Shown here piece by piece: positions 736 through 47,684 of a stretch of DNA of 64,000 nucleotides. Position 1 is the first letter of the stretch. Each line of letters opens with the position of its first letter. This DNA is from a bacterium. Its GTDB lineage: Bacteria > Patescibacteriota > Minisyncoccia > UBA6257 > WO2-44-18. Position numbers and translations under genes: made by a program. The notes below the pieces were generated by a model. That model made no database searches and had not been told where the DNA came from. It saw only the letters and a program-made list of their open reading frames with translations. Location of the stretch: assembly GCA_023244815.1 (NCBI GenBank), contig JAHFLQ010000002.1, forward strand, positions 6,994-70,993. The letters are read 5' to 3'.

Positions 736-1833
736 TTACCGTTTAAGAAAATCTCTAGCGAAAATAGCGGCGCAATATCCGGTGCCATCCAAAGTCCCCC
801 ATCTTTCCAAAATTTCCTTCTTGGTCTGCTGGCAAGACCGCTTTGCATGCTCGGATTTTTTCAGAAGTTCTTTTAAGGGCTCCTCTCGATAAACGATTCC
901 GATTCCGGTTTTTTCTATAGCTAGGTTGTTGAAATAAATTTCCGGATCGTCAGCGGAGTCGTATTCCGGAACAATAATCGGTTTTTCGGCGAGCAGAGAA
1001 AACCACACCGACGCCCAGCCGGAACGGGCGAAGTGAAGCAAAATGGTTTGATTGGTTATCAGATTCGGATTATGATCGCCATTACTGTATATTTTCAGAC
1101 CAAGCTTTTCCGCTTTTCCATAGAGCCGTTCCAGCCCGGGTATGCCAGTTTTAGTAACGTAAATCCCTTTTTCAATTTCAGAGGTGTCCGGCCGGGGCAT
1201 TGGACCAATCGGCGGAGCCAGGACCTCTCCCTTATGCACCGGCTGATAATCCTTCGCCCAGGAAAACACTCCGGGATACGCGACTGCTTGTATTTGCTGT
1301 TCCCGTTCGATGCATTTGGAAATTTCCGCCGCTTTCTGCAACAATTCTTTCTGGATTTTTATAACCGGCACCTCCAAAGATTTTTCAAAAATCTGACTCA
1401 TGTGCCCGAAAGAGGTGGAATACGCAGGAGCCACTCCATAAAGAAGCCGCGGCGACCGATTCAGTTCCACCGCAATATCAGAGCCATACCTCGCAGACAA
1501 ATACGCATTGGCCTCGCGTGACACTTCCTTAAAATTTGCGGTCCACTTTTTCAAATACGTTTCGTAGTCTGTGCCGCCATAAAAAACTTTTTCTAAAATA
1601 CCCCCCAATCCGGCGTCCAATATGAGCTCGCCGGGGTATTTTTTCTCATAGCCGGAAAATTCTTCCGCCATGATTCTTTTCTGTTTCTCGCCGTAAACCC
1701 AAGGAACAATGATTCCCATTCTGGGTTGGCCGGCTCTTTCTAATTCGTCGTTAAAGGCCGCGGCCAATTTCGTTGTCATCAAGTATGGTCCCGTGCCGTA
1801 GGCGAAGTTGGTAACAATATATTTATGATGCAT
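736..1833 (-). CDS. GT-B fold glycosyltransferase (GT1/GT28 MurG-like C-terminal domain)
   Basis: 365 aa. The N-terminus NFAYGTGPYLMTTKLAAAF and the C-terminal ARSGWASVWFSLLAEKPIIVPEYD...DPEIYFNNLAIEKTGIGIV resemble the donor-binding region of UDP-glycosyltransferases. Confidence 0.45.
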   Translation of the reverse strand: MHHKYIVTNFAYGTGPYLMTTKLAAAFNDELERAGQPRMGIIVPWVYGEKQKRIMAEEFSGYEKKYPGELILDAGLGGILEKVFYGGTDYETYLKKWTANFKEVSREANAYLSARYGSDIAVELNRSPRLLYGVAPAYSTSFGHMSQIFEKSLEVPVIKIQKELLQKAAEISKCIEREQQIQAVAYPGVFSWAKDYQPVHKGEVLAPPIGPMPRPDTSEIEKGIYVTKTGIPGLERLYGKAEKLGLKIYSNGDHNPNLITNQTILLHFARSGWASVWFSLLAEKPIIVPEYDSADDPEIYFNNLAIEKTGIGIVYREEPLKELLKKSEHAKRSCQQTKKEILERWGTLDGTGYCAAIFARDFLKR

Positions 1834-1836
1834 AGT

Positions 1837-2712
1837 TTAGGAAAATAATATCGTCACCACTCCCAAAACCGCGATCACCGCGCCGAAAAGTTTTTGGGAT
1901 ATATTCTTTTCTTTAAAAAACAGCCAACCCCAAACCACCCCCAATAGAACGCCCATTCGCTTAACCGCTATCGTATAAGAAGCAAGACCAGCAAGTAAAG
2001 CTGAATTATGCACGACATTGCCAATGGCTAGAAGCACGCCCACACCCACTAACAATAACGGCCCCGAAACGGACCCGGCTCCCGATCCAGTATGAAGAAA
2101 TATCTTTTTGTAACGAGTTAATAGATAAATCGCACTGCCAAGGGCGATAACGGCCAACACTCCTGCTGATCCTAAAAATCGATCGGAATGCTGTACCGCT
2201 AATTTGTCAAAATTTACCGAAATTGAAAAAATTGCGGCCACCGATACGCCCAGCCAGTTACCTTTGGCAAAACCGGGAATGTCGATGTGCTTGTGTTGAG
2301 AAGTAATAAACCATAGCCCGGATACCGTCAATAAAACTCCCAGTATGCCAACCGGCGATGGCGCCTCGCCTAGAAATATAAACGAGGTTATCAGAAGAAA
2401 AACCGGCGTTAGGAGAATCATCGAGTAAACCGAGGAAAACTCTCCGACCTCGTAAGCTTTGAGCATAATCGGCCAAGCTAGAGCGTTTAAAGCCCCGGTG
2501 ATAAAAATTGCTGACCAAAATTGATTGTCTATCTGCGGCAAACCGACGATAAAATAAGAAACTACAAAAATAAGAGCGGCGGCAATCGCGGTAATAACAA
2601 AAGTGATAGTGACCTTGGAATAGCCGACAACCGTAACCGCCCGTTTCTGCAAAGTCTGCATAAAAGAATGTATAATCGCCGCACTAAACGCCAGCAAAAA
2701 CCAGGTCAACAT
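1837..2712 (-). CDS. EamA/DMT-superfamily membrane transporter
   Basis: 291 aa with about 10 hydrophobic helices and a duplicated EamA-like architecture. It abuts the upstream gene. Confidence 0.6.
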   Translation of the reverse strand: MLTWFLLAFSAAIIHSFMQTLQKRAVTVVGYSKVTITFVITAIAAALIFVVSYFIVGLPQIDNQFWSAIFITGALNALAWPIMLKAYEVGEFSSVYSMILLTPVFLLITSFIFLGEAPSPVGILGVLLTVSGLWFITSQHKHIDIPGFAKGNWLGVSVAAIFSISVNFDKLAVQHSDRFLGSAGVLAVIALGSAIYLLTRYKKIFLHTGSGAGSVSGPLLLVGVGVLLAIGNVVHNSALLAGLASYTIAVKRMGVLLGVVWGWLFFKEKNISQKLFGAVIAVLGVVTILFS

Positions 2713-3672
2713 TTATTTATGGAGATGCTTCTTAGCCAGATCGGCGATAAAATCTTGCGTAATTTCTTTAGCTTCGTAAGTAGTGCCGCCAATGTGGGGC
2801 ACGATCAGCAGGTTTTGATTTTCTTGAGCGTATTCTATTAGCGGATTATTTTTAAGATGGCTATTATCGTCTTTTTCATCCCACAAAACATCCGCCGCCG
2901 CGCCGGCTATCCATTTTTCTTTTAGGGCTTTTTCCAGTAATCCCCTTTCAATCAACTCGGCGCGGGCGGTATTGATCAAATAAGAAGATGGTTTCATGCT
3001 TTGCAGATGCTTGGCCTTGATTAACTCCCGGGTATCATCCTGCAGCAACACATGCAACGAAACCACGTCGGCGGTTTTGAACAAATCTTCCATTGCTACT
3101 TTCGTAACGCCAAGTTTTGCCATGTCTTTTTCGTCAACATAGGGATCAGCGGCAACAACTTTCATGCCAAAAGCCAAAGCGTAGCCAGCTACCAATTTAC
3201 CCAAACGACCAAGTCCGAAAATTCCTAAAGTTTTGCCGGAAAGTTGATGGCCTACCCACTGATTGGTGTTCCAATGCCCGTTTTTCACGTCTTCAAACGC
3301 CCAGGGCAGGTTTCTCAAAAGAGCGATGATCAACCCCATAGTTTCTTCGGCAGTTGAGGGAATTTTTTCTAGAAACTCTGTACGGCCACGCAAAGAAATT
3401 ATCTCAATGCCTTTATTTTCGGCATATGCGGTATCAATATGGTTCAGCCCCGTGGTAGAAGTAGCGATTACTTTTAGGGCCGGCATCTTATCGAGCAACT
3501 GCCTATCCACCGTTAAGGCCAATCGGACCGCCAAAATGTCCGCTCTTGGGAGAATCGCCGCTTTTTCCGCTTCGCTCAAATCAAACCAAAAATAAACTTC
3601 GCCAAGCTCTTTGTAGGTGGCTATGGCTTTGGGCGAATAATTCGGCTCGGCGATTAAAGTGATAAATCTCAT
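2713..3672 (-). CDS. D-isomer-specific 2-hydroxyacid dehydrogenase family, NAD-binding
   Basis: 319 aa. Rossmann motif GIFGLGRLGKLVA and the typical family C-terminus (...IVPHIGGTT...). Confidence 0.7.
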   Translation of the reverse strand: MRFITLIAEPNYSPKAIATYKELGEVYFWFDLSEAEKAAILPRADILAVRLALTVDRQLLDKMPALKVIATSTTGLNHIDTAYAENKGIEIISLRGRTEFLEKIPSTAEETMGLIIALLRNLPWAFEDVKNGHWNTNQWVGHQLSGKTLGIFGLGRLGKLVAGYALAFGMKVVAADPYVDEKDMAKLGVTKVAMEDLFKTADVVSLHVLLQDDTRELIKAKHLQSMKPSSYLINTARAELIERGLLEKALKEKWIAGAAADVLWDEKDDNSHLKNNPLIEYAQENQNLLIVPHIGGTTYEAKEITQDFIADLAKKHLHK

Positions 3673-4385
3673 GGCTGTAGTTTTTTCATTATCTCCTCGG
3701 CTTTTAAAAAATCTTCTAGATTGTCTATGTCCACGGCATATTTGGATTCAATAATTTGGGGCGCGGTTTTTTCGCCGTAAAAATTTGGGTTGTCTTTATC
3801 AAATAACAGATTGGTTTTAAAAAGATAAATCAGATTAGCGCTCCAATAATTTTTTGGCCGATCCTGCCGGCGAGGAATCCGTTTGTAAATAGGATCGCCA
3901 TTAACCAGCCTTAAGAAGCCGTCCGGTCGGATAATCATGCTGGCGGAATGATTAAAATGCTCCGGAACTTCCGCTACGCTCATTACAGAATCCGCTCCCG
4001 TCTTTAAAATCAATTCCACCGCTTCTTTAATATGAAATGACTGGAGCGTAGGCGCGGTTGGCTGAAGAATCATAGTGTAATCGGGCTGGTAATTCTCATT
4101 TTCTTTCAACCAACGGACTGCGTGTTGTAGTACCGCTAAGTGCGCAGTATCATCCTGCGCAAGCTCCGCCGGCCTCATAAACGGCGCTTCGCAGCCATAT
4201 TCTTTGGCCACTTCAGCAATTTTGGGATCGTCGGTCGATAAAATTATCCGGTCCAAAACACCTGATTTTTGAGCCGCTTCTATTATGTAGACAATCAACG
4301 GCTTGCCTAAAAGCGGTTTGATATTTTTCCCAGGCAGTCCCCTGGATCCACCCCGAGCGGTTATGACGCCTAAGATTTTAGCCAT
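3669..4385 (-). CDS. CMP-sugar (acylneuraminate/NulO) cytidylyltransferase, paralog 1
   Basis: Start is probably MAKILGVITARGGSRGLPGKNIKPL (ATG at 4385). This N-terminal motif is characteristic of the NeuA/PseF/LegF CTP-transferase-3 family. The gene is translationally coupled to its neighbours. Confidence 0.75.
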   Translation of the reverse strand: MAKILGVITARGGSRGLPGKNIKPLLGKPLIVYIIEAAQKSGVLDRIILSTDDPKIAEVAKEYGCEAPFMRPAELAQDDTAHLAVLQHAVRWLKENENYQPDYTMILQPTAPTLQSFHIKEAVELILKTGADSVMSVAEVPEHFNHSASMIIRPDGFLRLVNGDPIYKRIPRRQDRPKNYWSANLIYLFKTNLLFDKDNPNFYGEKTAPQIIESKYAVDIDNLEDFLKAEEIMKKLQP

Positions 4386-5106
4386 TAAAATTTGGCTTCT
4401 GAAATGTTGCTTCCGCGATTGCCCAATCTTCAGGAGTATCAATATCAACATTATATTTCGGATCGATCACGAGTGCCCGCACGTCATCGCCAAGCATGCC
4501 CGCGTCCTCGTCGTATTTAAAAAGGTTATCCGTTTTAAAGAGGTAAATCATGCCATTACTCGCGTAAGACGCTGGAAGATCCTGCCGCCGCATGATTCTT
4601 TTCCGGACTGGTTGACCATTGATGAGTGCCAATCTGTCTTCTGCGTCCTTGGTCATAGAACGGTAGGGATTATAATGCCCAGGAACAGGAGAAACTCCGA
4701 ACACTGAATCAGCCTCCGTTTTCGTAATGATCTCCACCGCTTCGCGTATGTGTTCTGGCTGCCGGAGCGGGCAGGTTGGAAAAAGCGTCATGACATAATC
4801 CGGAACGTATCCCTCATTGTCTTTAAGCCAGTTAATCGTATGGCGCAATACGGGAAGGTGCTGAGTGTCATCCGCGGCTAGCTCTTTGGGGCGCATAAAT
4901 GGGACCTCACAGCCGTATTTTTTTGCCACATCAGCAATGCGAGCGTCGTCGGTCGTTAAAATAATGCGGTCAAACACTCCCGATTTTTTAGCAGCTTCAA
5001 TAGAATAGGCGATGAGAGGCTGTCCTCCTAACAGTTTAATATTTTTTCCCGGAACGCCCTTGGATCCGCCGCGCGCAGTAATGATTCCTAAAATTTTTTT
5101 ATCCAT
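4378..5106 (-). CDS. CMP-sugar cytidylyltransferase, paralog 2
   Basis: Start MDKKILGIITARGGSKGVPGKNIK (ATG at 5106). Same family as 3669..4385 and in tandem with it. Confidence 0.75.
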   Translation of the reverse strand: MDKKILGIITARGGSKGVPGKNIKLLGGQPLIAYSIEAAKKSGVFDRIILTTDDARIADVAKKYGCEVPFMRPKELAADDTQHLPVLRHTINWLKDNEGYVPDYVMTLFPTCPLRQPEHIREAVEIITKTEADSVFGVSPVPGHYNPYRSMTKDAEDRLALINGQPVRKRIMRRQDLPASYASNGMIYLFKTDNLFKYDEDAGMLGDDVRALVIDPKYNVDIDTPEDWAIAEATFQKPNFNG

Positions 5107-5824
5107 GGCGTTGTTTTTTTGATAATAAAAATTCCGCAAATTCCCAATCAATTGGGGAATTAATGTCTATATTTTCTTCTTCTATCACATAGGGCAAAAT
5201 ACGGTCGCCGGAAACAGATTTTTTCTCCATCACTGTGGCATAGCGAGTCACATCTACCTGCCCATAGTGCGCGTAGGTTCTCGGAAGCTTCTGCCTTCCC
5301 CAACAGAACGCCTCCTTTTCTCCTGGAATAGTGATGACTGGATTCAGATAGCCGCTCTGGCTGATATGGAAGATTTTATATGGGGGCACTGGCGGCGTAG
5401 AAACCGTCCATACCGAATCGGCGCCGGGATTATTCGCGAGCATCTCAATGCCCTTCTCAATAGAAGAGAATTTCCTCAAAGGGTATGTCGGGCGTAAATG
5501 AACAATAAAGTCAGGCTTCCAGCCTTCATGCTTTTCCAGCCACTCTAGGGCATGTAAGAAAACTGGAAAATCTTTAGTGTCATCTTGCGCTATTTCCTTC
5601 GGTCGCATAAATGGCACTTCACACCCATGCTGGCGACCCACTTCCGCAATCTTCGGATCATCGGTAGTTAAAATGACACGGTCGAAATATTGCGCCGCTT
5701 TCGCGCTCTCGATGGTGTAGACCAGAAGGGGCCTGCCCAACAGCGGTTTAATATTTTTCCCCGGAACGCCCTTGGATCCGCCGCGCGCAGTGATCAGGCC
5801 TAGCACTTTGTAGTTCTTATACAT
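5099..5824 (-). CDS. CMP-sugar cytidylyltransferase, paralog 3
   Basis: Starts MYKNYKVLGLITARGGSKGVPGKNIKPL. Third tandem copy. It shares a near-identical nucleotide tract of about 46 nt with paralog 2 (5035-5080 versus 5750-5795). Confidence 0.75.
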   Translation of the reverse strand: MYKNYKVLGLITARGGSKGVPGKNIKPLLGRPLLVYTIESAKAAQYFDRVILTTDDPKIAEVGRQHGCEVPFMRPKEIAQDDTKDFPVFLHALEWLEKHEGWKPDFIVHLRPTYPLRKFSSIEKGIEMLANNPGADSVWTVSTPPVPPYKIFHISQSGYLNPVITIPGEKEAFCWGRQKLPRTYAHYGQVDVTRYATVMEKKSVSGDRILPYVIEEENIDINSPIDWEFAEFLLSKKQRHG

Positions 5825-5828
5825 AGAC

Positions 5829-7544: not shown

Positions 7545-7553
7545 GTTGTCTAT

Positions 7554-9728: not shown

Positions 9729-9754
9729 AAAAGGGCCCATTTAATGGGCCCTTT
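9729..9754. terminator. Hairpin aaagggccca-tttaa-tgggcccttt at the 3' end of the minus-strand gene 9741..10730
   Basis: 10-bp stem with the stop codon in the loop. On the minus strand a T-rich tract follows (ttttattgg). Confidence 0.6.
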
Positions 9755-14038: not shown

Positions 14039-14054
14039 TTTATCGCATCCGTTG

Positions 14055-17860: not shown

Positions 17861-17886
17861 AAAAAGAGCGCTGGTTAAGCGCTCTT
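17861..17886. terminator. Hairpin terminator with the gmhA stop codon in the loop
   Basis: aagagcgc-tggttaa-gcgctctt has A-runs before it and T-runs after it, read on the minus strand. Confidence 0.5.
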
Positions 17887-21099: not shown

Positions 21100-21171
21100 T
21101 GTTTCTACAGTTATAAAATCACGCGTAGCAATAATTTGCAACGTGTTATATGATAGAAATAATTTATTATC

Positions 21172-33116: not shown

Positions 33117-33139
33117 AAACCCGGTGCTGAACCGGGTTT
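33117..33139. terminator. Bidirectional hairpin terminator
   Basis: aaacccggt-gctga-accgggttt is a 9-bp stem. On the minus strand it is followed by tttttaatt. Confidence 0.6.
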
Positions 33140-35824: not shown

Positions 35825-35892
35825 TGGTTTTCCTTTCATCATTGCCCACATAATGAAACACAAAATCGATCAAAAAGGTTATACTGATACCA

Positions 35893-41536: not shown

Positions 41537-41562
41537 AGATAATAATGAAACTGAAATTAAGG

Positions 41563-43719
41563 CTAAATTGTCACCGATTTAAGGCAATCCGCGAGACGGA
41601 TCACTAGAGTTGCCAGACTATGCTTTTCGACGATAAGCGCGCGCATTGTTTCTGATATTTTACCAACTTCTACCAATGGTTTTTTAATAAATGCCGTTAT
41701 TTTTCCCGCCAAATCTTTATAGTTATTTTCTTCAAACATTAATTGTCCGACCAAATTTTCCGGGAAAATATCCAAAAACGCCTTATTGCTCACAATTGCC
41801 GGCAAACCACAGGCCATGGCTTCCAGTGTGCTTTTGTCGAAACTTCCGGTATCGGTGAGATTAATAAATAAGTCATACTGATTGTAAATTCCCGGAGTTG
41901 CATAATTAGGCACCGACGAAAGGAATTTTACCCGATCGAATATGCCAAGGTCGGTCGCCAATTTTTTGATTTCTTCATAATACGCAGTCTCTATTGGCTT
42001 GCCCGGCGTTGGCTCGCCTAAAATTGTTAGCGAAGCATTGTCGGTATGATACAGAGCGGCAAAAGCCCGAAGCAAAACATCAACGTGCTTCACTGGCGCG
42101 ATTCTCCCTAAAAACAATATCTTGAATCCTGAATCTTGAATCGTGAATCGTGAATCTCCGAACGGCTTAAACCGCTCTGTATCAATTCCCTGTTGCAACA
42201 CTTCAAGTTTCCTGCTCTGAAATGGATATGCCAAACGTACCGAAGTGACAATTTTATCCGGAAAAATCGCCGCGAGTTTTAGTTTCCATGTACCACGATA
42301 ATGGGCATACCAGAAAACCACGCGCCTGCCCAGTAATCTCCACAGCCAGCCGGCTAAAATTAAATACTCCGGATTCATGTGTACGAAAACCACGTCATAA
42401 TCATTTCTAAGACGCCAAACATATCTATAAAAATTAATCAGGTATTTTAATCTACCGGCATTGGATTCTTTGCCCAGAGAATGAGTTGCCACGTTGGGCG
42501 GTAAATTAGTCCGGCCACGGTAAAGGCAGATCACATGCACTTTGTCGAACTTTCCCGCTAAACCGGCAACCCATTGGTGATAAACACCTAAAACATCGTC
42601 GTCCAGATCCAATTTTTGGGTGATAAACAGTAATTTTTTAAACTTTTCTAGTTTTAAAGAATTCGCGTAAGCCGTTAGATATTCCTGCTTGCTAGGCAAA
42701 TTTTTTATAACTTCCTTTTGCTTGTTAACTAATTCCTGTCGCTCCTTAAAATCTCCGATAAGACTCTGCACGGCAGATGCCACCGCTTGTCGATCGCCAA
42801 CTGGCACTACTTTTCCTATCGCCACACCCACGTCGGTCATCACGACCGGGACGGCGGCTATCGCGGCCTCTACTGCCACGCGGCCATAGCCTTCATAATT
42901 AGAGGTCAGTAAAAATAAATCCGCGTTTTTGTAGTAGCTCGCGAGATCATCATTATACGGCTTAATGACAACATTATTCTGTAGTCGGTAATTGGTAATT
43001 AGTAATTGGAGTTTTCTACGCTCTGGCCCATCCCCAACAATCACTAGCCGTAATTTTGGATTTTCTTTGACTAAATCAGCCATGGCCTCAATTGCTAGGC
43101 CAATGTTTTTCTCTCTGGTAAGCCGGGACGCCATCAGTATTAAAAAATCTTGGCCGTTACCGGCTTTTACGTTTTGAATCCCAACAAGGTCGGTAAAGAT
43201 TGGCAAGGTGGTGATTTTCTCCTCCCCAGTTACTGTTCGTTTAATCAAAGATTTTTTTATACGATCGGAAACTACTCGTACGCCATCCGCTTTTGGCAAA
43301 ATCCTTTTCGCAATCCATATGCGCAACCGGTTTTTGAAAGATTCGCCCGCAAAATAAGGACTTAAAAAATCCGTATGGACCTGAAGCTGAAGAGGCGCCT
43401 TGAACTGACGGGCTAATCGGTAGGCGATCCAGCCGTTTTCAAATGGATCCTGCGCGGTAACTACCCATTGGCCACCAGATTTTAGCAATCGTTCACCTAT
43501 CCCATAAGCAGTCCAAAGTGCCCAGAACTTGAATCTGGAATCGGTAGGGTGCGCGACGGCATTTTCTGATATTAAATCTTCTGTTTTGCCAAAATCCTTC
43601 GCGGTCAGAACAATAATATGCAGCTCGTCGAAATACTGACTGTATTCCCGCATTCTCTTTCTTGCTTCCGAATTTTCTCGCAGAATATTTTCATCTGTAG
43701 AAAGCATTAACACTTTCAT
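41563..43719 (-). CDS. Double-module GT4 glycosyltransferase (two GT-B units in one 718-aa polypeptide)
   Basis: Module 1 has VIVGDGPERRKLQLLITNYRLQ...EGYGRVAVEAAIAAVPVV. Module 2 has ILFLGRIAPVKHVDVLL...FDKSTLEAMACGLPAIVS. It contains two heptamer tracts. Confidence 0.65.
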   Translation of the reverse strand: MKVLMLSTDENILRENSEARKRMREYSQYFDELHIIVLTAKDFGKTEDLISENAVAHPTDSRFKFWALWTAYGIGERLLKSGGQWVVTAQDPFENGWIAYRLARQFKAPLQLQVHTDFLSPYFAGESFKNRLRIWIAKRILPKADGVRVVSDRIKKSLIKRTVTGEEKITTLPIFTDLVGIQNVKAGNGQDFLILMASRLTREKNIGLAIEAMADLVKENPKLRLVIVGDGPERRKLQLLITNYRLQNNVVIKPYNDDLASYYKNADLFLLTSNYEGYGRVAVEAAIAAVPVVMTDVGVAIGKVVPVGDRQAVASAVQSLIGDFKERQELVNKQKEVIKNLPSKQEYLTAYANSLKLEKFKKLLFITQKLDLDDDVLGVYHQWVAGLAGKFDKVHVICLYRGRTNLPPNVATHSLGKESNAGRLKYLINFYRYVWRLRNDYDVVFVHMNPEYLILAGWLWRLLGRRVVFWYAHYRGTWKLKLAAIFPDKIVTSVRLAYPFQSRKLEVLQQGIDTERFKPFGDSRFTIQDSGFKILFLGRIAPVKHVDVLLRAFAALYHTDNASLTILGEPTPGKPIETAYYEEIKKLATDLGIFDRVKFLSSVPNYATPGIYNQYDLFINLTDTGSFDKSTLEAMACGLPAIVSNKAFLDIFPENLVGQLMFEENNYKDLAGKITAFIKKPLVEVGKISETMRALIVEKHSLATLVIRLADCLKSVTI
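42124..42158. repeat. Tandem heptanucleotide tract (GAATCNT) x5 inside a coding sequence
   Basis: gaatcct gaatctt gaatcgt gaatcgt gaatctc. In frame on the minus strand it encodes GDSRFTIQDSGFK. Confidence 0.9.
42981..43008. repeat. Tandem heptanucleotide tract (GTAATTR) x3, plus one degenerate unit, inside a coding sequence
   Basis: gtagtcg gtaattg gtaatta gtaattg. It encodes LQLLITNYRL. Confidence 0.9.
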
Positions 43720-43721
43720 TG

Positions 43722-44360: not shown

Positions 44361-46590
44361 GGCTTATTAATTCTACTAAATTATTAACCGTTCGTTCTAT
44401 TGAAAACTTCCCTGCTTTCTTCTTGGCATTTTCAGTAATGGACTCCCGGAATAACGGGTCGGAATCAATTTTTTTGATCGCGGCGATAATTTGTTCCTTA
44501 TTGTTAGGCTGCACAATAATGCCCTCCCTGCCATCCTCTATAAGTTCCGGAATGCTGCCGATCTTTGTGGCAACTATTGGCACACCCGCGTTCATCGCTT
44601 CCACTACTTGAAAAGAAAAGCTCTCAAAAGAAGTGTTCAGCACAAAAACCGACGCTTTCGATAAATATTTTTCCAATTCTTCTCTTGAGACAGCACCGGC
44701 TAATTGAATTTGATCTTGTAATTGGTAATTAGTAATTAGTAATTGGAGATTCGCCCGCTCCGGTCCGTCCCCAACAATCACCAGGCGCCAATCCGGTAAT
44801 TCTTTCATTATTTCTATTAAAACATCGAACCCTTTCCATGGAACCAACCTTCCAGCTGAAAGAATAGTTTTGTCTTTGCTTGCTACTTGCTGCCCACTGC
44901 TTGCTAATAAATTGATACCATTATAAATTACCTGAACCTTTTCCGGATTTTTTACCCAACCGCCAACAAGCTGTTGAAAATACTTGCTTGGCGTAATAAC
45001 AAGATCGGCTTGGCCAACTACAAATTTTTGAATTTTTCTCAAAAATTCCACTTTCAGACCATATTTATTTTTCTGAAAATCATCTATCGTATCTTTCACT
45101 CCAAATCTTTGCGCGGACTGCTCCCAGGCATAGTCACCAGCCACACGGATAAAGAATTTCTTACCTCTTAACCGCGCCGCGATTAAAGCCGGCAAGCCAA
45201 CGCTAGCGGGGTCTTGGGCATAAACAAAATCAAAGCCCTTTATTAATTTCCAGCAATTCCAAAAGTAGTATAGATGGCGAATAATTTTTGGTTTCTTCCT
45301 AAAATCGGTAAACGCCAAATGGCCCACCAAAAATCTACGCTTCGGCAACTCCTCTTCCAGCAGCTTAGTGTAGGTCGCTGGCCCGCCTATGTCCGGCGGA
45401 TAGATTCCGGTGGCAATCAAAATCCGATTTGTGGGCTGTAGGCTGTGCACTGTAAGCCTTTCAAAAAGGCTATTCATTTTTGAGGCAATACCGTCCCAAG
45501 AATAATTTTCCCGAACCAGCCTTTGGCCGTTTTGAGCGATTCTTTCCGCCAACTCCTGATCAGCGAAAAGTAAACTTATTTTTTCCGATAAATCTTTTGG
45601 GTTATCTATTGCACAAAAAAGGCCAGTGGCGCGATCTTTTAAAAAATCCGGTATGCCGCCAACTGGCGTACCAATCACCGGCAAACCGGCCGCCATCGCT
45701 TCCAGAAAAGAACTGCCCAGTCCCTCGGAGCGGGAGGCTCTTACAAAAAAATCGGCTTTTGCTAGATACTCCGGAACTTTTTCTGGATCTAGGTGGCCAA
45801 AAAACTTGACCCGATCCGCTACGCCCAACTCCGCCGCAAGTTTTTTCAACCCTTCCTCTTCGGGACCGCCGCCCAAAATTAGTAATTGGTAATTGGTAAT
45901 TGGTAATTGAGCGGCCGCTCTGATTAAAATATCCACTCCATTTTTATGAACCAATCGCGAAGTGGTGATAATAACTGGGCCGGCAATTTTTGACTTATCA
46001 TTTTTAACTTTTAATTTATCCAGAGCTACTCCATTCGGCACTACCTCGATTGGACAGCGCGCGCCATGGCGCCGAGCAAAATCGGCAAGATAATTACTGA
46101 TAGCTTGGATATGGTCCGCTTTTCTGAAAATCCAACGCCAAAATGGATAAAAAATGCCTACCCGTTTTAAAATATAGATTTCGGAATCTCCCTCCTGAAG
46201 CGTCAGCAAAAATGGAACTTCCGGATGCCGTAGTTTAAATAATAGCGCTGACAGACCGGCATAAGCCGCCATTATGCTCCAAATCGCTTTAAAAGGCTTT
46301 TGTTTATGAATACGCTCTGCCGCGCGCCAGGCCAGGAAAACATAAATAAGCTTTGAAAAAAACCCGCCATAATATTGGCCATCCTTTCTGCCCGCTCCAA
46401 GACGAACGACCGAGATATTGGCATCGTTCTCTATGTCCGGCCAGCGGGCGTCAAATTTTTTAGTTAAAATTATAAATTCAGTCTTGGAAACATGTCTGGC
46501 AATTTCCCGCACAGCGACCTCTGCTCCTCCTACAAAAGGCGCGTAAGCAAGACTAAAAACCGCAATCCCTTCCTTGCGCGAAGAAATCAT
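44344..46590 (-). CDS. Double-module GT4 glycosyltransferase (748 aa)
   Basis: Module 1 has LLILGGGPEEEGLKKLAAELGVADRVKFFGHL...SEGLGSSFLEAMAAGLPVIGT. Module 2 has IVGDGPERANLQLLITNYQLQ...ESFSFQVVEAMNAGVPIVAT. It contains two heptamer tracts. Confidence 0.65.
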   Translation of the reverse strand: MISSRKEGIAVFSLAYAPFVGGAEVAVREIARHVSKTEFIILTKKFDARWPDIENDANISVVRLGAGRKDGQYYGGFFSKLIYVFLAWRAAERIHKQKPFKAIWSIMAAYAGLSALLFKLRHPEVPFLLTLQEGDSEIYILKRVGIFYPFWRWIFRKADHIQAISNYLADFARRHGARCPIEVVPNGVALDKLKVKNDKSKIAGPVIITTSRLVHKNGVDILIRAAAQLPITNYQLLILGGGPEEEGLKKLAAELGVADRVKFFGHLDPEKVPEYLAKADFFVRASRSEGLGSSFLEAMAAGLPVIGTPVGGIPDFLKDRATGLFCAIDNPKDLSEKISLLFADQELAERIAQNGQRLVRENYSWDGIASKMNSLFERLTVHSLQPTNRILIATGIYPPDIGGPATYTKLLEEELPKRRFLVGHLAFTDFRKKPKIIRHLYYFWNCWKLIKGFDFVYAQDPASVGLPALIAARLRGKKFFIRVAGDYAWEQSAQRFGVKDTIDDFQKNKYGLKVEFLRKIQKFVVGQADLVITPSKYFQQLVGGWVKNPEKVQVIYNGINLLASSGQQVASKDKTILSAGRLVPWKGFDVLIEIMKELPDWRLVIVGDGPERANLQLLITNYQLQDQIQLAGAVSREELEKYLSKASVFVLNTSFESFSFQVVEAMNAGVPIVATKIGSIPELIEDGREGIIVQPNNKEQIIAAIKKIDSDPLFRESITENAKKKAGKFSIERTVNNLVELISHASGR
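44718..44745. repeat. Tandem heptanucleotide tract (GTAATTR) x4 inside a coding sequence
   Basis: gtaattg gtaatta gtaatta gtaattg. It encodes LQLLITNYQL. Confidence 0.9.
45882..45909. repeat. Perfect tandem heptanucleotide tract (GTAATTG) x4, with a fifth degenerate unit, inside a coding sequence
   Basis: gtaattg x4 at 45882-45909, preceded by aaaatta. It encodes QLPITNYQLLIL, placed before the GGGPE motif rather than after it. Confidence 0.9.
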
Positions 46591-47684
46591 GACAGATAAA
46601 CTCGCTCTGTTTCCTGAACCATTCTAGAAAGTGTAAGTCTTCGCCGTAAAAATTGCCCAGCGCCTGTAGAAAATTTTCTGGCTTCTTCCGGATGCTCCAG
46701 ATAATACCTAATCGCTCGCGTGATTTCCTCCGGTTCCCCGGGTGGCATCACTAGGCCGCGATCCTGGACAATTTCGGTCATGCCGCCAACTCGGGTTACG
46801 ATTATCGGAACATCCGCCGCCATTGCTTCCAGCATAGTATAAGGCAGACCCTCTTTGATAGAAGTTAGAAGAAAAACATCAAAAGCTTTTAAATACGGGG
46901 CGGCGGGAGCTAATTTCTCCGCTATAAAACACCGATTGCCCAAACCAAGTTTTTTAATTCTTGCTCGCAGTTTTAGCAATTCATATCCGGAACCAATAAT
47001 AAAAAAGTTGGCGTTCGGCAAAAGCGCCGCCGCCTCTAGAAAGGTTCCGTAATCTTTTTCCACAACTAAACGGCCGACAGAGCCAATCCACACGCTTTTC
47101 TCATCAACCGGCGCACCGGTTATTTTTTTAAGGACACGGCGGGCTTCGGATCTTCCGATAAAATTTATCGGCGCAATACCGTTATACACGGTTACCAGTT
47201 TTTCCGGCTGGGCGATGCGATTCTGTATGGCCAATTGGGAATCATAATCGGAAACCGAAATTATGGCATCCTGAAAACGGGCGGCTATTTTATGAAGCAG
47301 TACGTAAAAACGCCGTCGCAACCAGCTTAGCCGATTGCTGGGATTAAATACCCACCCATGGGCGGTAAAAATCACTCGCGGCACTCCGGCAAATTTTGCC
47401 GCCATCGCACCAATCACACCGGCCTTAGAGCTGTTAAGATGGATGATGTCTGGTTTTTCGCGGCGGAAAATAAAAACTAGCTCCAAAAGAGCGAGGAGAT
47501 CGTTAACAAAAAGAAAGTACGGACGGATCGAGTTAGAAAGAAAGCGCAAGCCATTTTTCCCACCCATTAAAACCTTGACCTGAAATTTCTGGGGATTCAG
47601 AGATTCCGCCAATTCTCGGACATATTTTTGGGCGCCCCCGACGTCGTCCTTGGTAATGACAAAAAGAACTCTTTGCATGTACAT
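46587..47684 (-). CDS. GT4-family glycosyltransferase
   Basis: 365 aa. KEGLPYTMLEAMAADVPIIVT (EX7E) and an N-terminal GT4 domain. No heptamer tract. Confidence 0.65.
   Translation of the reverse strand: MYMQRVLFVITKDDVGGAQKYVRELAESLNPQKFQVKVLMGGKNGLRFLSNSIRPYFLFVNDLLALLELVFIFRREKPDIIHLNSSKAGVIGAMAAKFAGVPRVIFTAHGWVFNPSNRLSWLRRRFYVLLHKIAARFQDAIISVSDYDSQLAIQNRIAQPEKLVTVYNGIAPINFIGRSEARRVLKKITGAPVDEKSVWIGSVGRLVVEKDYGTFLEAAALLPNANFFIIGSGYELLKLRARIKKLGLGNRCFIAEKLAPAAPYLKAFDVFLLTSIKEGLPYTMLEAMAADVPIIVTRVGGMTEIVQDRGLVMPPGEPEEITRAIRYYLEHPEEARKFSTGAGQFLRRRLTLSRMVQETERVYLS

Follow-up and report, generated by a model that had tools for sequence, protein, structure and literature searches.

A large gene island for a predicted nonulosonic-acid-rich glycan, with a plausible role in surface-protein glycosylation, in a Patescibacteria/CPR genome

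Background

Proteins with TagB/TagF domains are published candidates for nonulosonic acid (NulO) transferases in Tannerella forsythia. BFO_1060 is named among these candidates together with Tanf_01245/TFUB4_00887; deletion of the latter two leaves the S-layer O-glycan without its Pse/Leg residue (PMC5420450). In Bacillus subtilis, the TagB-domain protein SpsB is encoded in a legionaminic-acid (Leg) locus and is dispensable for Leg transfer (PMC7439481).

The current work is aimed at an island of glycan genes in a stretch of 64,000 nucleotides of bacterial DNA (hereafter the window). The island shares TagF-like transferases with T. forsythia, and its transferase set therefore has a precedent. 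We consider it somewhat more probable than the alternatives taken together that the island produces a methylated glycan rich in nonulosonic acids, which is assembled on a lipid carrier and used to glycosylate surface proteins, with a giant secreted protein at its border as the likeliest acceptor.

Methods

Window ORFs of at least 100 aa were scanned with Pfam and NCBIfam/TIGRFAM profiles, and PDB sequence matches were collected. Recurrence was assessed in 31 metagenome loci anchored on a TagF-like gene, each of at least 9 kb. The control set includes 35 ClpB-anchored CPR-like loci (692 kb, top-ranked ClpB matches). Related loci are designated by L and a number where they have to be distinguished.

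Results

Extent, integrity and host of the island

The block of about 47 kb recognized in the original prediction is real and mostly co-directional: positions 736-47684 hold 43 ORFs with a coding density of 97.7% (ORF scan), and 37 of the 43 genes lie on the minus strand (Table 1). Profile searches confirmed most of the predicted gene families. The island extends about 7 kb beyond the left end of the window and totals at least 54 kb, which is roughly one-twentieth of the genome for a genome of this size. The extension encodes a second NeuB (214.7 bits), a sixth TagF-like protein (28.9 bits), an NDP-sugar dehydrogenase, and a protein with Wzy_C and TPR domains (Wzy_C 82.1 bits, cut-off 31.7). 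This leftward run had not been recognized previously.

The host is supported as a reduced-genome Patescibacteria/CPR bacterium, probably Paceibacteria-like, because its ClpB is 67-76% identical to those of Paceibacteria/Parcubacteria MAGs; a related complete chromosome has 0.89 Mb. This agrees with the small genome supposed earlier. The locus is native and non-chimeric, since at least four samples yielded this gene order in independent assemblies and the composition of the island matches that of the core flank (tetranucleotide correlation 0.97).

Table 1. Genes of the island within the window and at its right border (pairs of values are score/cut-off in bits)
Position	Strand	Assignment	Evidence
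736..1833	-	Possible GT-B enzyme, 365-aa soluble protein	Sole match Pfam Glyco_tran_28_C, E=0.16; no NCBIfam or PDB sequence match
1837..2712	-	EamA/DMT-superfamily 10-TM transporter	Pfam EamA 58.8 bits; ~10 TM segments
2713..3672	-	D-isomer-specific 2-hydroxyacid dehydrogenase, PGDH/glycerate-DH-like	Pfam 2-Hacid_dh_C 174.7 bits; NCBIfam PGDH 220 bits, below cut-off
3669..4451	-	CMP-ulosonate cytidylyltransferase paralogue 1 (CTP_transf_3)	Pfam 92.1 bits; best NCBIfam PseF 171.8/205.7
4378..5151	-	CMP-ulosonate cytidylyltransferase paralogue 2 (CTP_transf_3)	Pfam 92.7 bits; PseF 197.5/205.7; 56% identical to paralogue 1
5099..5824	-	CMP-ulosonate cytidylyltransferase paralogue 3 (CTP_transf_3)	Pfam 73.4 bits; PseF 146.2/205.7
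5829..7544	-	NDP-sugar 6-dehydrogenase with N-terminal CBS pair, UDP-ManNAc/GlcNAc-DH-like	Three UDPG_MGDP_dh domains + CBS; NDP-sugDHase 365.6/189.8
7554..8510	-	Possible PhyH-like 2OG/Fe(II) oxygenase, 318 aa	HxD...H motif (WHRDPED...H); ectoine hydroxylase 12.8 bits, E=0.053; no Pfam match
8503..9678	-	NeuC-type hydrolysing UDP-GlcNAc 2-epimerase, copy 1	TIGR03568 363.2/235.9; wecB only 47.8
9741..10730	-	GFO/IDH/MocA NAD(P) oxidoreductase	Three Pfam domains; best NCBIfam UDP-GlcNAc 3-dehydrogenase 83 bits, below cut-off
10723..12057	-	Radical SAM enzyme with SPASM/twitch domain	Radical_SAM 62.4, SPASM 38.2 bits; NCBIfam twitch rSAM 90.8 bits, below cut-off
12182..13249	-	Probable GT-B protein, 355 aa	Weak matches to the TagF-like family profile (14.8 bits, local E=2.4e-5) and to TIGR04396, "surface carbohydrate biosynthesis protein" (14.8 bits); no Pfam match
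13328..14104	-	TylF-type O-methyltransferase	Pfam TylF 88.7 bits
14055..15461	-	TagF/TagB-like GT-B transferase A	Glyphos_transf 27.6 bits; BFO_1060 family 60.2 bits, E=1.9e-16; 26-34% identical to remaining paralogues
15513..16868	-	TagF/TagB-like GT-B transferase B	Glyphos_transf 43.7 bits; BFO_1060 family 46.7 bits
16954..17787	-	Transaldolase/fructose-6-P aldolase family protein	Pfam TAL_FSA 129.5 bits; NCBIfam fsa 120.7/246
17875..18522	-	SIS-domain sugar-phosphate isomerase, GmhA-like, weak	Pfam SIS_2 33.5 bits; gmhA 56.2/209
18621..19286	+	Sugar-1-phosphate nucleotidyltransferase, HddC-like, weak	Pfam NTP_transferase 82.7 bits; best NCBIfam Arch_glmU 146.8/292; HddC 69.9/300
19319..20299	-	GHMP sugar kinase, HddA-like, weak	GHMP_kinases_N and _C; HddA 122.8/600
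20362..21270	-	Class I SAM methyltransferase	Methyltransf_11 57.2 bits; 38-40% identical to those at 32338 and 37263
21172..22068	+	Trm112-like zinc ribbon + SAM methyltransferase	Trm112p 28.4, Methyltransf_11 50.8 bits; two C-terminal hydrophobic segments
22069..23961	-	Orphan CPR-specific GT-C-fold membrane glycosyltransferase	Fold search; ~12 TM segments; external C-terminal domain of ~200 aa
23939..24868	-	Extended SDR, GalE/4,6-dehydratase-like	Pfam Epimerase 204.6 bits; galE 232.8/262.3
24870..25601	-	GT2 polyprenyl-phosphate glycosyltransferase-like, ArnC/Dpm1/AglJ type	Glycos_transf_2 91.1 bits; top NCBIfam ArnC 70.5, PgfS, dolichyl-P hexose transferase 57, AglJ 46 bits
25588..26616	+	Extended SDR, TviC/GalE-like 4-epimerase	Epimerase 215.4 bits; TviC 197, GalE 190, below cut-offs
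26582..27673	-	GT4 glycosyltransferase, single module	Glycos_transf_1 154 bits
27655..28602	-	Extended SDR, 4,6-dehydratase/epimerase-like	Epimerase 190.7 bits; dTDP-glucose dehydratase 161, GalE 154, LegB 130 bits, each below cut-off
28595..29761	-	NeuC-type hydrolysing UDP-GlcNAc 2-epimerase, copy 2	TIGR03568 402.4/235.9
29758..30861	-	NeuB-family nonulosonic acid synthase (NeuB + SAF)	Pfam NeuB 206.5, SAF 46.6 bits; NCBIfam NeuB_NnaB 271.8/399.65, PseI 226.9/340.25
30905..32281	-	TagF/TagB-like GT-B transferase C	Glyphos_transf 38.3 bits; BFO_1060 family 58.5 bits; AF2 model pLDDT 93.5, GT-B fold
32338..33111	+	Class I SAM methyltransferase, paired with transferase C	Methyltransf_11 70 bits
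33138..34202	-	AroB-related sugar-phosphate cyclase	DHQ_synthase 116, DHQS_C 91 bits; TIGR04425 394.6/400; aroB 244.9/305; closest PDB match dehydroquinate synthase
34307..35092	-	HpcH/HpaI-family (class II pyruvate aldolase-like) protein	Pfam HpcH_HpaI 29/25; PDB matches to HpcH aldolases reach only E ~0.6
35096..35863	-	Classical short-chain dehydrogenase/reductase	adh_short 50.8 bits
35893..37236	+	TagF/TagB-like GT-B transferase D, most divergent	Glyphos_transf 20.8/22.1; BFO_1060 family 78.3, TIGR04396 33.8 bits
37263..37958	+	Class I SAM methyltransferase	Methyltransf_11 61.4 bits
38031..39380	-	TagF/TagB-like GT-B transferase E	Glyphos_transf 40.8 bits; BFO_1060 family 50.1 bits; 42% identical to C
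39384..40775	-	Wzx/MOP-family oligosaccharide flippase, divergent	~12 TM segments; homologues with PF01943/PF13440
40772..41536	-	CMP-ulosonate cytidylyltransferase paralogue 4 (CTP_transf_3)	Pfam 80.4 bits; PseF 124.4/205.7
41563..43719	-	GT4 glycosyltransferase, double module	Two Glycos_transf_1 stretches, 188 bits
43722..44360	-	Class I SAM methyltransferase between two double GT4 genes	Methyltransf_11 46.9 bits
44344..46590	-	GT4 glycosyltransferase, double module	Two Glycos_transf_1 stretches, 295 bits; NCBIfam EpsE/BshA/TuaC/PglJ-like, below cut-offs
46587..47684	-	GT4 glycosyltransferase, single module	Glycos_transf_1 102.5 bits
47725..48513	-	Membrane-anchored TPR protein	TPR matches mostly below cut-off; N-terminal hydrophobic segment
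48630..52457	-	Giant secreted surface protein, S-layer-like, proposed acceptor	1275 aa, 24% Ser+Thr, signal-like N-terminus, coiled coil; PG_binding_1 22.3/23

Precursor supply

The predicted NeuB-like synthase, two NeuC-like 2-epimerases and four CMP-sugar synthetases all pass Pfam or TIGR03568 thresholds. The NeuB and all four cytidylyltransferases nevertheless score under the NeuB/PseI/PseF equivalog cut-offs, which counts against our explanation. The NeuB score is at family level only and therefore leaves Neu5Ac, KDN and a 9-deoxy relative as candidate products. Thus, the core of the proposed "sialic-acid" glycan pathway stands, but sialic acid proper is only plausible as the product. No DegT-type aminotransferase was found among the scanned window ORFs, and the classical Pse and Leg routes were therefore rejected.

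NeuC copy 1, which probably works with the second NeuB encoded in the leftward extension, shares 56-59% identity with the NeuC of a gene string that recurs in five related loci. The SDR gene at 27655 overlaps the terminal part of the neighbouring NeuC gene, and L094 has this NeuB-NeuC-SDR block with 74-82% conservation. The 2-hydroxyacid dehydrogenase, a gene overlooked at first, accompanies TagF-like, NeuB, NeuC and CTP_transf_3 (CTP3) genes in 9 of the 31 CPR loci. For cytidylyltransferase paralogue 2, the public gene call matches 4378-5106. The GFO/IDH/MocA gene is found again near CTP3 in four loci; one of these islands has a 53% homologue of the GHMP kinase, and in another an EamA gene comes after NeuB-CTP_transf_3.

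The UDP-sugar dehydrogenase, three GalE-like SDRs, radical SAM enzyme, EamA transporter and six SAM methyltransferases of the original prediction were all confirmed by profile searches. The GDP-heptose module fared less well: the transaldolase, SIS, GHMP and NTP_transferase families are present, but GmhA, HddA and HddC scores are far below equivalog cut-offs and no GmhB-type phosphatase was found in window profile searches. A heptose-containing glycan is only plausible, the module being weak, incomplete and assigned at family level. The 2OG oxygenase (7554-8510; 45% homologue in one related island) is unproven, as is the GT28-like assignment of the 365-aa protein.

Homologues of three further genes lie in L119. 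The AroB-like gene (53%) adjoins CTP3, TagF-like and SDR genes there, the classical SDR gene (55%) adjoins the AroB-like one, and cytidylyltransferase paralogue 4 (66%) adjoins TagF-like and AroB-like genes. The AroB-like cyclase/aldolase/SDR trio had been overlooked.

Transferases and export

Four of the five predicted TagF-like transferases pass Pfam Glyphos_transf; the fifth, D, is sub-threshold but a clear paralogue (BLAST E=1e-22 to 7e-30 versus the others). The possible sixth at 12182-13249 matches the family profile weakly, but lacks a Pfam match. NF046086, "BFO_1060 family glycosyltransferase", is the top NCBIfam model for six TagF-like proteins including the one left of the window (33-78 bits, E=3e-8 to 6e-22; TarB/TarF 16-20 bits), all far below its cut-off of 200 bits, which counts against our explanation. 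The fold search, which gave generic GT-B matches only, also counts against it. Families GT38/42/52/80 and Maf were not found among scanned ORFs of at least 100 aa. The claim that the transferases match no canonical Neu, Leg or Pse set holds in this respect, but the TagF-like enzymes do have a counterpart in T. forsythia; that precedent had gone unrecognized.

There are four GT4 genes with six modules, not three genes, although the two double fusions were rightly predicted. The single-module proteins have homologues at 52-67% identity in L094, L097, L109 and L149 (26582) and at 58-65% in L097 and L149 (46587), while the position of the double gene at 41563 is kept in L097, L109, L119 and L149. 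The methyltransferase between the double genes has 49-60% homologues at the equivalent position in L109, L119 and L149; the pairing of a methyltransferase with TagF-like C occurs also in L094, L109 and L119, and the Trm112-like protein recurs in 5 of the 31 loci.

The Dpm1-like GT2 with its GT-C-like membrane partner was confirmed, the former by Pfam and the latter by fold; GT2-GT-C fusions contain a GT2 half homologous to the island's GT2. A direct Pfam search gave no match for the Wzx flippase, but its homologues (24-55% identity, one named oligosaccharide flippase) carry PF01943/PF13440 and support the assignment. An initiating phosphoglycosyltransferase (PF02397, PF00953) was not found in the window and the 7-kb left flank, which counts against our explanation.

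Recurrence and the right border

Many CPR contigs carry this set of genes again, in two cases directly beside a homologue of the giant protein. Among the 31 TagF-like-anchored loci, NeuB is found in 20, Wzx-like in 16, CTP_transf_3 in 14, GT-C in 12, and NeuC and 2-hydroxyacid dehydrogenase in 9 each. None of the 35 control loci has NeuB, CTP_transf_3, NeuC, TagF-like, Wzx-like or GT-C genes.

The giant Ser/Thr-rich secreted protein predicted at the island end is confirmed in its length, composition and signal-like N-terminus. The TPR gene lies between it and the island, and has an equal position in L097, L109 and L149. Giant-protein homologues at the equivalent position are 52% (L097) and 45% (L109) identical, and the order giant protein-TPR-GT4...-Wzx-TagF is kept in both; in L149, which is truncated on the upstream side, the order is intact starting with the TPR gene. 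The giant gene also stands next to ClpB as part of a conserved core in Paceibacteria relatives, in which the few kb covered past it revealed no island gene. The adjacency could therefore be positional.

Discussion

The window would hold the larger part of an island for a complex, acidic, heavily O-methylated heteroglycan, comprising precursor supply and an assembly line. From the families, folds, paralogy, recurrence and synteny observed we infer donors, acceptors, the nature of the sugars and the order of steps. One nonulosonic module would consist of NeuC 28595, NeuB 29758 and SDR 27655; another of NeuC 8503, the 2-hydroxyacid dehydrogenase, three tandem cytidylyltransferases and the second NeuB. 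Further precursors may come from the fourth cytidylyltransferase, the NDP-sugar 6-dehydrogenase, three 4-epimerase/dehydratase-type SDRs, an NDP-heptose-like module (transaldolase, SIS isomerase, GHMP kinase, nucleotidyltransferase) and, judging by families only, the AroB-like trio. Six GT4 modules and five to seven divergent TagF/TagB-like GT-B enzymes would assemble the glycan on a polyprenyl-phosphate carrier on the cytoplasmic side of the membrane, the TagF/TagB-like enzymes acting as transferases for CMP-activated ulosonic acids. The SAM methyltransferases, which adjoin most TagF-like genes, may methylate the added residue, and the Wzx-family flippase would carry the lipid-linked glycan outward. 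External attachment could fall to the Wzy_C-TPR protein of the ligase/O-oligosaccharyltransferase family, to the GT2 together with the orphan GT-C, or to both of these systems. The GT-C may either transfer the glycan or add a polyprenyl-phosphate-borne sugar. The likeliest acceptor would be the giant, predicted peptidoglycan-binding protein.

Surface-protein glycosylation, suggested already in the original prediction, is only plausible. It is favoured because of the giant-TPR-GT4 order in L097 and L109, the Wzy_C-TPR gene and the GT-C, but the giant gene's being a core ClpB neighbour tells against it. Because we take the host to be a monoderm organism, its Wzy_C enzyme would have no lipid A-core acceptor, which we count for the link to a protein acceptor. 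The 17 NxS/T sequons of the giant protein are not above chance and count against it.

The main rival to the protein-glycan reading is a wall- or membrane-anchored anionic glycopolymer, i.e., a teichulosonic-acid-like secondary cell-wall polymer or capsule that is not protein-linked. The TagF-like enzymes would then be primases or polymerases of ulosonic-acid repeats, Wzy_C a polymerase or ligase, and the giant peptidoglycan-binding protein a mere neighbour or polymer-binding protein. TagF/TagB enzymes are classically wall-polymer enzymes, and the Glyphos_transf matches and the TarL profile (C-terminal half, E=1.3e-4 for TagF-like C) fit this; five to seven paralogues suggest repeat-unit chemistry, Wzy_C models include polymerases too (TIGR04370 19 bits), and the giant gene occurs in relatives with no island gene found beside it. 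We nevertheless regard such a polymer as rather unlikely. No LCP (LytR-CpsA-Psr) ligase, TagGH-type ABC exporter or TagO/WecA-type primer gene was found in the window, Wzx and the many distinct single-copy transferases and methyltransferases resemble a defined-oligosaccharide set, the giant-TPR-GT4 order is kept across lineages 45-52% identical, and the family that fits the TagF-like proteins best takes its name from a candidate NulO transferase for a protein O-glycan.

It is improbable that the TagF-like proteins are true glycerol- or ribitol-phosphate transferases of a teichoic-type polymer, next to an unrelated sialic-acid pathway with CMP-ulosonates used by one of the GT4 or unassigned GT-B proteins. 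Four of the five pass the Glyphos_transf gathering score, their GxPxxD and FAPP motifs line up with GVPRTD and FAPT of TarL, and the sialyltransferase HP and D/E-D/E-G motifs are missing, which also counts against our own explanation; so does the dispensability of SpsB for Leg transfer (PMC7439481), as regards TagF-like enzymes as ulosonic-acid transferases. However, neither TagD-like nor TarI/J genes for CDP-glycerol or CDP-ribitol supply were found in the window or in 80 related TagF-like loci, the TagF-like genes co-occur strongly with NeuB and CTP_transf_3 (20/31 and 14/31 loci against 0/35 controls), and BFO_1060 family scores exceed those of TarB/TarF by 30-60 bits. Equally doubtful is a general O-glycosylation system directed at other secreted proteins, e.g., type IV pilins, rather than the giant protein. 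Wzy_C-family O-oligosaccharyltransferases of the PglL/PilO type glycosylate pilins and many other proteins. The system of T. forsythia is a general one (PMC5420450), and the TPR protein at the border gives a weak PilW-like match (22.8 bits). Against this, pilin or pilus-assembly genes were not found in the window and the inspected flanks, and the giant protein is the conserved neighbour.

Content and boundaries of the glycan island

The region between positions 736 and 47684 carries 43 genes in the ORF listing, 37 of them on the minus strand, and is 97.7% coding. All ORFs coding for 100 aa or more were scanned against Pfam and NCBIfam. The scans bear out, with corrections, the original prediction of a large glycan block built around NeuB, NeuC and CMP-sugar synthetases; the interpretation that accompanied it is partly supported. 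Three extended SDRs, six SAM methyltransferases (MTs), a radical SAM/SPASM enzyme, an EamA transporter and a GT2 scored above curated thresholds. So did four GT4 genes, one more than previously counted; two of them are double, which makes six modules. A CBS-fused NDP-sugar dehydrogenase reached 366 bits with TIGR03026 (cut-off 190). Genes missing from the earlier list are marked in the table. Two assignments in that list are unproven: the "GT28-like" protein was matched at E=0.16, and the "2OG oxygenase" has an HxD...H motif and a 12.8-bit match. PDB sequence searches with these two proteins and with the product of 12182-13249 gave matches at chance level only.

Coordinates of the features discussed in the text (window positions unless a locus is named; L166 is the source contig to the left of the window; L085, L086 and L094 are related CPR metagenome loci)
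Feature	Coordinates	Strand	Remark
SHMT + FolD, this island	1-574; L165 11260-13277	- (1-574)	
SHMT + FolD, unrelated CPR contig	L085 11410-13660		
"GT28-like" protein	736-1833		
EamA/DMT transporter	1837-2712	-	
EamA/DMT transporter, distant locus	L086 19917-20771		
D-2-hydroxyacid dehydrogenase	2713-3672		not in earlier list
"2OG oxygenase"	7554-8510		
GFO/IDH/MocA oxidoreductase	9741-10730	-	not in earlier list
MT beside TagF-like gene	13328-14104		
GT-C	22069-23961		
GT2	24870-25601		
TagF-like protein, modelled	30905-32281		
MT beside TagF-like gene	32338-33111		
AroB-related cyclase	33138-34202		TIGR04425 394.6 bits (cut-off 400); not in earlier list
HpcH/HpaI-family protein	34307-35092		not in earlier list
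Classical SDR	35096-35863		not in earlier list
MT beside TagF-like gene	37263-37958		
Wzx-like protein	39384-40775		
Giant protein	48630-52457		
Polytopic membrane protein	53488-55044	-	
ClpB	56582-59197		
Split PGM-family gene	61829-63098	-	two overlapping ORFs
PGM-family ORF, domain I	62712-63098	-	
PGM-family ORF, domains II-IV	61829-62740	-	
ECF-type sigma-70 gene + 106-aa protein	L166 5078-5975		
Wzy_C protein	L166 9243-11090		same contig, outside window
PG-binding segment	L094 15235-15432		

Leftward of position 736 the genes for SHMT and FolD come first, then one for an ECF-type sigma factor and one for a small membrane protein. Next are another NeuB (214.7 bits in Pfam; 30% identity with the NeuB of the window), a TagF-like protein that is the sixth of its kind (28.9 bits with Glyphos_transf), another NDP-sugar dehydrogenase and, last, a protein of at least 616 aa that combines the O-antigen-ligase domain Wzy_C with TPR repeats at its C-terminus. 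Past ClpB, the right flank is housekeeping (FtsK, RecA and others). Because glycan genes continue leftward and the right flank is housekeeping, the island measures at least 54 kb, which would be about 6% of the chromosome if this had 0.89 Mb, as in a relative.

The concern that the locus might be a chimera of unrelated contigs can be dismissed: independent assemblies from no fewer than three further samples contain parts of the locus in identical gene order, G+C (0.42-0.53) has no step across the window, and the tetranucleotide correlation between island and core flank is 0.97, the giant protein's gene being the sole deviating one. A foreign origin of the island was rejected on the same three kinds of data. 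In ENA, the window matches positions 6995-70994 of a contig 98.4 kb long. The tRNA and Rfam scans of the window returned no match, and a promoter scan gave a count at random expectation. The window proteins occur in a public collection, where no source names them.

ClpB is 67-76% identical to its counterparts in MAGs of Paceibacteria, Liptonbacteria, Jorgensenbacteria and other Patescibacteria, and a related complete chromosome has 887,956 bp; both confirm the expected reduced genome. The order PGM-RNaseH-like-exonuclease-cysteine desulfurase-ClpB-membrane protein-GalU-like-HTH-giant protein is syntenic in many relatives.

Recurrence in other CPR loci

The modelled TagF-like protein has hundreds of homologues, and all named ones belong to Patescibacteria. 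A metagenome scan with the TagF-like family alignment yielded 78 loci, many labelled as Hainich 0.1-µm groundwater filtrates ("Hain-H..-01um"). Components were counted in the 31 of these loci that are at least 9 kb long: NeuB is present in 20 of 31, the Wzx-like protein in 16, CTP_transf_3 in 14, GT-C in 12, and NeuC and the 2-hydroxyacid dehydrogenase in nine each. NeuB, CTP_transf_3, NeuC, TagF-like, Wzx-like and GT-C genes were all absent from 35 ClpB-anchored CPR-like control loci (692 kb), which were the top-ranked ClpB matches.

Two gene strings recur. GT-C-TagF-2-Hacid DH-NeuB-NeuC-CTP3 is complete in three loci (L127, L135, L137) and lacks one element, GT-C or CTP3, in L142, L143 and L146; its NeuB is orthologous, at 51-59% identity, to the NeuB of the left flank, and L127 also has a Wzy_C-TPR protein. 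The string TPR-(GT4)-double GT4-MT-double GT4-Wzx-MT/TagF is found in L097, L109 and L149, and in L119 from the first double GT4 on, that locus being cut off at this end. In L097 and L109 a homologue of the giant protein (52% and 45% identity) precedes it. Modules are reshuffled between lineages, e.g., in L094, as is usual for surface-glycan loci. The search among relatives suggested with the original prediction thus finds a gene set that is recurrent in CPR and no one-off.

Sugar precursors

The two NeuC-type epimerases exceed the TIGR03568 cut-off (402.4 and 363.2 bits vs 235.9). The NeuB protein has the Pfam NeuB (206.5 bits) and SAF domains and scores 271.8 bits with the equivalog model TIGR03569, below its cut-off of 399.65; it is a family member whose substrate the score does not fix. 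The four CTP_transf_3 proteins, three of them in tandem, score 73-93 bits in Pfam, and their best NCBIfam model is PseF (124-198 bits vs 205.7), so these cytidylyltransferases are likewise family-level assignments. The predicted NeuB/NeuC/NeuA-like trio therefore stands at TIGR03568 for NeuC and at Pfam level for the other two, but misses the NeuB and PseF equivalog cut-offs. As predicted, the transferase set matches no canonical sialic-acid locus: no GT38, GT42, GT52 or GT80 sialyltransferase was found by Pfam among the scanned ORFs of at least 100 aa.

PseB models gave at most 31 bits (cut-off 408) and LegB (TIGR04180) 120-156 bits (cut-off 475). The island has no DegT_DnrJ_EryC1 aminotransferase, the one weak match (14 bits) being to a class-V cysteine desulfurase-like gene outside it; nor was any other aminotransferase (LegC) or any acetyltransferase (LegH) found among its ORFs of at least 100 aa. 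The lack of DegT aminotransferase, PseB and LegB excludes the classical pseudaminic and legionaminic routes. A gene of the GFO/IDH/MocA type recurs beside CTP_transf_3 in L086, L128, L138 and L159; an aminotransferase to use the keto-sugar product is absent.

The proposed GDP-heptose module has the expected domain families and is a family-level assignment: GmhA scores 56 bits (cut-off 209), HddA 123 (600) and HddC 70 (300), and no HAD-type GmhB was found in the window. An exhaustive search returned 22,181 relatives of the AroB-like protein, the closest at most 47% identical over full length and one fragment 58%. Nearly all of these are unnamed, the one named match being from Candidatus Gottesmanbacteria, and they give no functional lead. 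No paper on TIGR04425 or "AroB-related" proteins was found.

TagF-like transferases

The five TagF-like paralogues in the window are 23-42% identical to one another. Four exceed the PF04464 gathering threshold of 22.1 bits (27.6, 43.7, 38.3 and 40.8), and the C-terminal half of the model alone is matched; the fifth, at 20.8 bits, is a clear paralogue of the others. For all six TagF-like proteins, including the one left of the window, the best NCBIfam family is NF046086, "BFO_1060 family glycosyltransferase" (33-78 bits, E=3e-8 to 6e-22, vs a cut-off of 200), while TarB/TarF models give 16-20 bits. By these scores they are relatives of the BFO_1060 family, not members.

BFO_1060, a TagB-domain protein, is among the candidate nonulosonic acid (NulO) transferases of T. 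forsythia, together with Tanf_01245/TFUB4_00887, whose deletion removes the terminal Pse/Leg derivative from the S-layer O-glycan (Tomek et al., PMC5420450). Among 87 members of the TagF-like family, no pair or triple of alignment columns carries the HP or D/E-D/E-G sialyltransferase motifs (PMC5420450) in more than 30% of sequences. The TagF-like profile aligns with TarL, a ribitol-phosphate polymerase, over its C-terminal half alone (GvPhyD vs GVPRTD); an SWD/GxPxxD sub-profile, run with regard to the catalytic histidines of TagF (H444/H584), found no TagF or TarL match in the PDB. The invariant W191-D192 pair may stand in for the WH motif. The AlphaFold model (pLDDT 93.5) has a GT-B fold. 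Its neighbours in a fold search are generic GT-B proteins (2-epimerases, MshA, OleD), with TagF at rank 46, and the single sequence has no match in the PDB.

A gene for CDP-glycerol or CDP-ribitol supply was sought. The window has no PF01467 match, and a weak IspD match (26 bits) falls on a sugar-1-P nucleotidyltransferase; tblastn with a TagD query gave nothing below E=0.34 in the window and 80 loci. An MT gene lies directly beside four of the five TagF-like genes, and this pairing recurs in L085, L086, L097, L099, L109, L113, L119 and L149. From the BFO_1060 match, the strong association with NeuB and CTP_transf_3, the four cytidylyltransferases and the lack of a CDP-polyol supply gene we infer that the TagF-like enzymes are probably transferases for CMP-activated ulosonic acids. 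Against this stand scores far below the 200-bit cut-off, the lack of HP and D/E-D/E-G motifs, and the TagB-domain protein SpsB of B. subtilis, which is dispensable for Leg transfer (PMC7439481).

Membrane steps

The Wzx-like protein has about 12 TM segments and no direct Pfam match at E<=1. Its homologues (24-55% identity) carry Polysacc_synt domains (PF01943/PF13440), which together with the TM segments makes it a putative divergent Wzx. The best matches of the GT2 are of ArnC, dolichyl-P-hexose and AglJ types. Three homologues of the adjacent GT-C protein are fused to an N-terminal GT2 homologous to this one; given these fusions and the GT2 type, the two proteins would be functionally coupled via a polyprenyl-phosphate sugar.

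The GT-C protein has the features of its fold, namely a polytopic N-terminal module, acidic residues in the first external loop and an external domain, and its top structural matches are PglB/STT3/AglB, AftA, ArnT and PMT. It matches no GT-C family of Pfam or NCBIfam, STT3 included. Its conserved residues are R62-E63 and S444-W445-x-W447; the STT3 motifs DxD, TIXE/SVSE and WWDYG are not present as such. The second of its motifs is placed like WWDYG but is a different one, so the resemblance is at fold level. The protein may either add one sugar outside the membrane (ArnT/PMT/YfhO logic) or transfer a whole glycan (AglB logic).

Neither the window nor the left flank contains a WbaP/WecA-type initiator. 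The Wzy_C domain (PF04932) scores 82.1 bits (cut-off 31.7); at this family level a putative ligase, polymerase or O-OTase is indistinguishable.

The giant protein

The giant protein (1275 aa) begins with a signal-like segment and contains a coiled coil; its PG_binding_1 match is below threshold, and Ser and Thr make up 24% of its residues. It contains 17 NxS/T sequons vs 17.0 expected from shuffles, i.e., no signal, and no internal repeats were found. Its gene adjoins the TPR-GT4 end of the island in two further lineages. It is a core gene in relatives in which the few kb covered beyond it gave no island gene.

The tetranucleotide profile of its gene (window 48001-52000) is deviant (r=0.34 vs 0.87-0.96 elsewhere), for which richness in Ser/Thr/Gly/Ala, rather than foreign origin, is the likeliest cause. 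One Logan assembly ends at about the TPR/giant gene junction, near window 48593 by coordinate mapping. Inside the glycan island of the related contig L094, a 67-aa segment matches the giant protein's PG-binding region at 61% identity; such a module may be reused by other island-encoded proteins.

Comparison with known systems

The island falls within the known type of surface-glycan or protein-glycosylation islands. Its unusual components are the CPR-specific TagB/BFO_1060-like radiation, the orphan GT-C, the AroB-like module and the four cytidylyltransferases. A close parallel in several traits is the T. forsythia locus for general protein O-glycosylation and the S-layer glycan, where genes for a NulO synthase and for CMP activation sit together with Wzx and many glycosyltransferases, and whose product is a complex decasaccharide on abundant surface-layer proteins (PMC5420450, PMC5378307, PMC6120980). 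Both systems have TagB/TagF-domain GT-B proteins, NulO transferases there and with BFO_1060 as best match here, and that glycan includes the uronic acid ManNAcA, while the island has an NDP-sugar dehydrogenase. Unlike that locus, the island lacks the aminotransferase-route genes PseB/PseC and LegB/LegC, so that its NulO would be neither Pse nor Leg, and has five to seven TagF-like paralogues in place of one transferase, with 33-78 bits against 200 and without the HP and D/E-D/E-G motifs. It also adds the GT2 and GT-C pair, the AroB-like module and four cytidylyltransferases, in a CPR host.

The S-layer glycan (slg) clusters of the Bacillales Geobacillus stearothermophilus, Paenibacillus alvei and Aneurinibacillus thermoaerophilus (Messner/Schaffer) contain nucleotide-sugar genes, including the GDP-D-glycero-D-manno-heptose route GmhA/HddA/GmhB/HddC, an initiating phosphoglycosyltransferase (WsaP/WsfP), cytoplasmic glycosyltransferases, methyltransferase capping, often an ABC exporter, and a Wzy_C-type O-oligosaccharyltransferase (WsaB/WsfB) acting onto the S-layer protein. 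They are not known to have nonulosonic acids or TagF-like enzymes. The island differs in that no initiator was found, export would be Wzx-type and the heptose module is family-level, without GmhB. The NeuABC(D)S capsule loci of E. coli K1, Neisseria meningitidis B and group B Streptococcus share with it the clustering of NeuC epimerase, NeuB-family synthase and CTP_transf_3. In contrast to them, it has no GT38/42/52/80, NeuD/NeuO acetyltransferase or Kps ABC export, its NeuB and NeuA are sub-equivalog, and synthase, epimerase and cytidylyltransferase are duplicated or quadruplicated.

In the sps cluster of B. subtilis, SpsE (NeuB-like), SpsF (CTP_transf_3) and SpsB (TagB-domain) are likewise together, and a legionaminic-acid NulO is linked to the proteinaceous spore-crust layer; the SpsC aminotransferase route of that system is absent from the island (PMC7439481). 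The two-component GT2 and GT-C systems (ArnC/ArnT, Ppm1/Pmt, GtrB/GtrC, CsbB/YfhO) and the STT3 proteins PglB/AglB resemble our pair in GT2 type, GT-C fold and the fusions of its relatives, but the window GT-C lies outside every Pfam and NCBIfam GT-C family. A flagellin glycosylation island was rejected, there being no flagellar or Maf genes; the Geobacillus flagellin-island paper does not mention TagF-like proteins. No paper in the literature searched links CPR/Patescibacteria with nonulosonic acids.

Interpretation

The best explanation, which we consider somewhat probable, is that the island serves to assemble a methylated, NulO-rich glycan on a lipid in a Wzx-dependent manner, and that this glycan would decorate the giant surface protein. 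A protein target is favoured by the conserved position of the giant gene, by BFO_1060 as the best TagF-like match and by the Wzy_C-TPR protein, the last because we take the host to be a monoderm without a lipid A-core acceptor. It is weakened by the place of the giant gene in the core of relatives that gave no island gene in the few kb covered beyond it, and by the unenriched sequons. The main rival, a wall-anchored teichulosonic-acid-like polymer, seems to us rather unlikely. Such a polymer of Streptomyces is reportedly Kdn-based and made with TagF-like genes. Its cluster SCO4873-SCO4882 is by its description set apart from the island as encoding a wall-linked repeat polymer with about 10 genes and without GT-C, Wzx or an MT array. 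The passage of PMC13011467 that cites Ostash et al. (2014) presents this product as an ulosonic-acid, phosphate-free anionic polymer of a monoderm.

A wider reading, which we regard as a long shot, is that CPR/Paceibacteria possess their own protein-glycosylation machinery, distinct from known bacterial systems. The orphan GT-C, with its AglB-like C-terminal domain and beside or fused to a polyprenyl-phosphate GT2, may be an oligosaccharyltransferase that works along archaeal lines; a monophosphate carrier primed in the AglJ-like way would then explain the missing phosphoglycosyltransferase. Several different CMP-activated acids may be installed by the CPR-specific radiation of TagF/BFO_1060-like enzymes, and one of them could be carbocyclic and quinate-like, formed by HpcH aldolase, AroB-like cyclase and SDR in succession.

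Members of the CPR live as ultra-small episymbionts, and most have not been cultured; their genomes measure about 1 Mb, and they are considered thrifty in biosynthesis. High spending on a multiply methylated glycan of the sialic-acid family implies strong selection on the cell surface, for which the obvious candidates are attachment to a host, escape from phages, and immune or predator mimicry. The locus also offers testable candidates for poorly known enzymes, namely TagB/BFO_1060-type NulO transferases, a new GT-C family and cytidylyltransferases.

Additional observations

The PGM-family gene (phosphoglucomutase/phosphomannomutase) is split into two ORFs in different frames. The split is also present on the public contig, and a small GIY-YIG ORF abuts it; the frameshift may reflect an error in sequencing, a pseudogene or recoding. 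Between the HTH and GalU-like genes lies a polytopic membrane protein gene that relatives do not have there. Its product, 518 aa long with about 11 TM segments and an external C-terminal part, matched neither Pfam nor NCBIfam and shows no detectable kinship to the GT-C family.

An EamA/DMT transporter gene adjoins CMP-ulosonate cytidylyltransferase genes in two distant loci, the window and L086. The DMT superfamily includes the eukaryotic CMP-sialic-acid transporters, so the protein could conceivably transport NulO or CMP-NulO. The SHMT and FolD pair is inside the glycan island here. On a CPR contig unrelated to this one it again adjoins a TagF-like gene, and that contig also has a formyltransferase gene and three for radical-SAM enzymes; the SHMT and FolD pair may provide one-carbon units for sugar modification or mark a conserved insertion hotspot. 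Between the two island halves lies the ECF-type sigma-70 gene with an adjacent gene for a 106-aa hydrophobic protein, a possible anti-sigma factor, and the two may form a dedicated regulator of the island.
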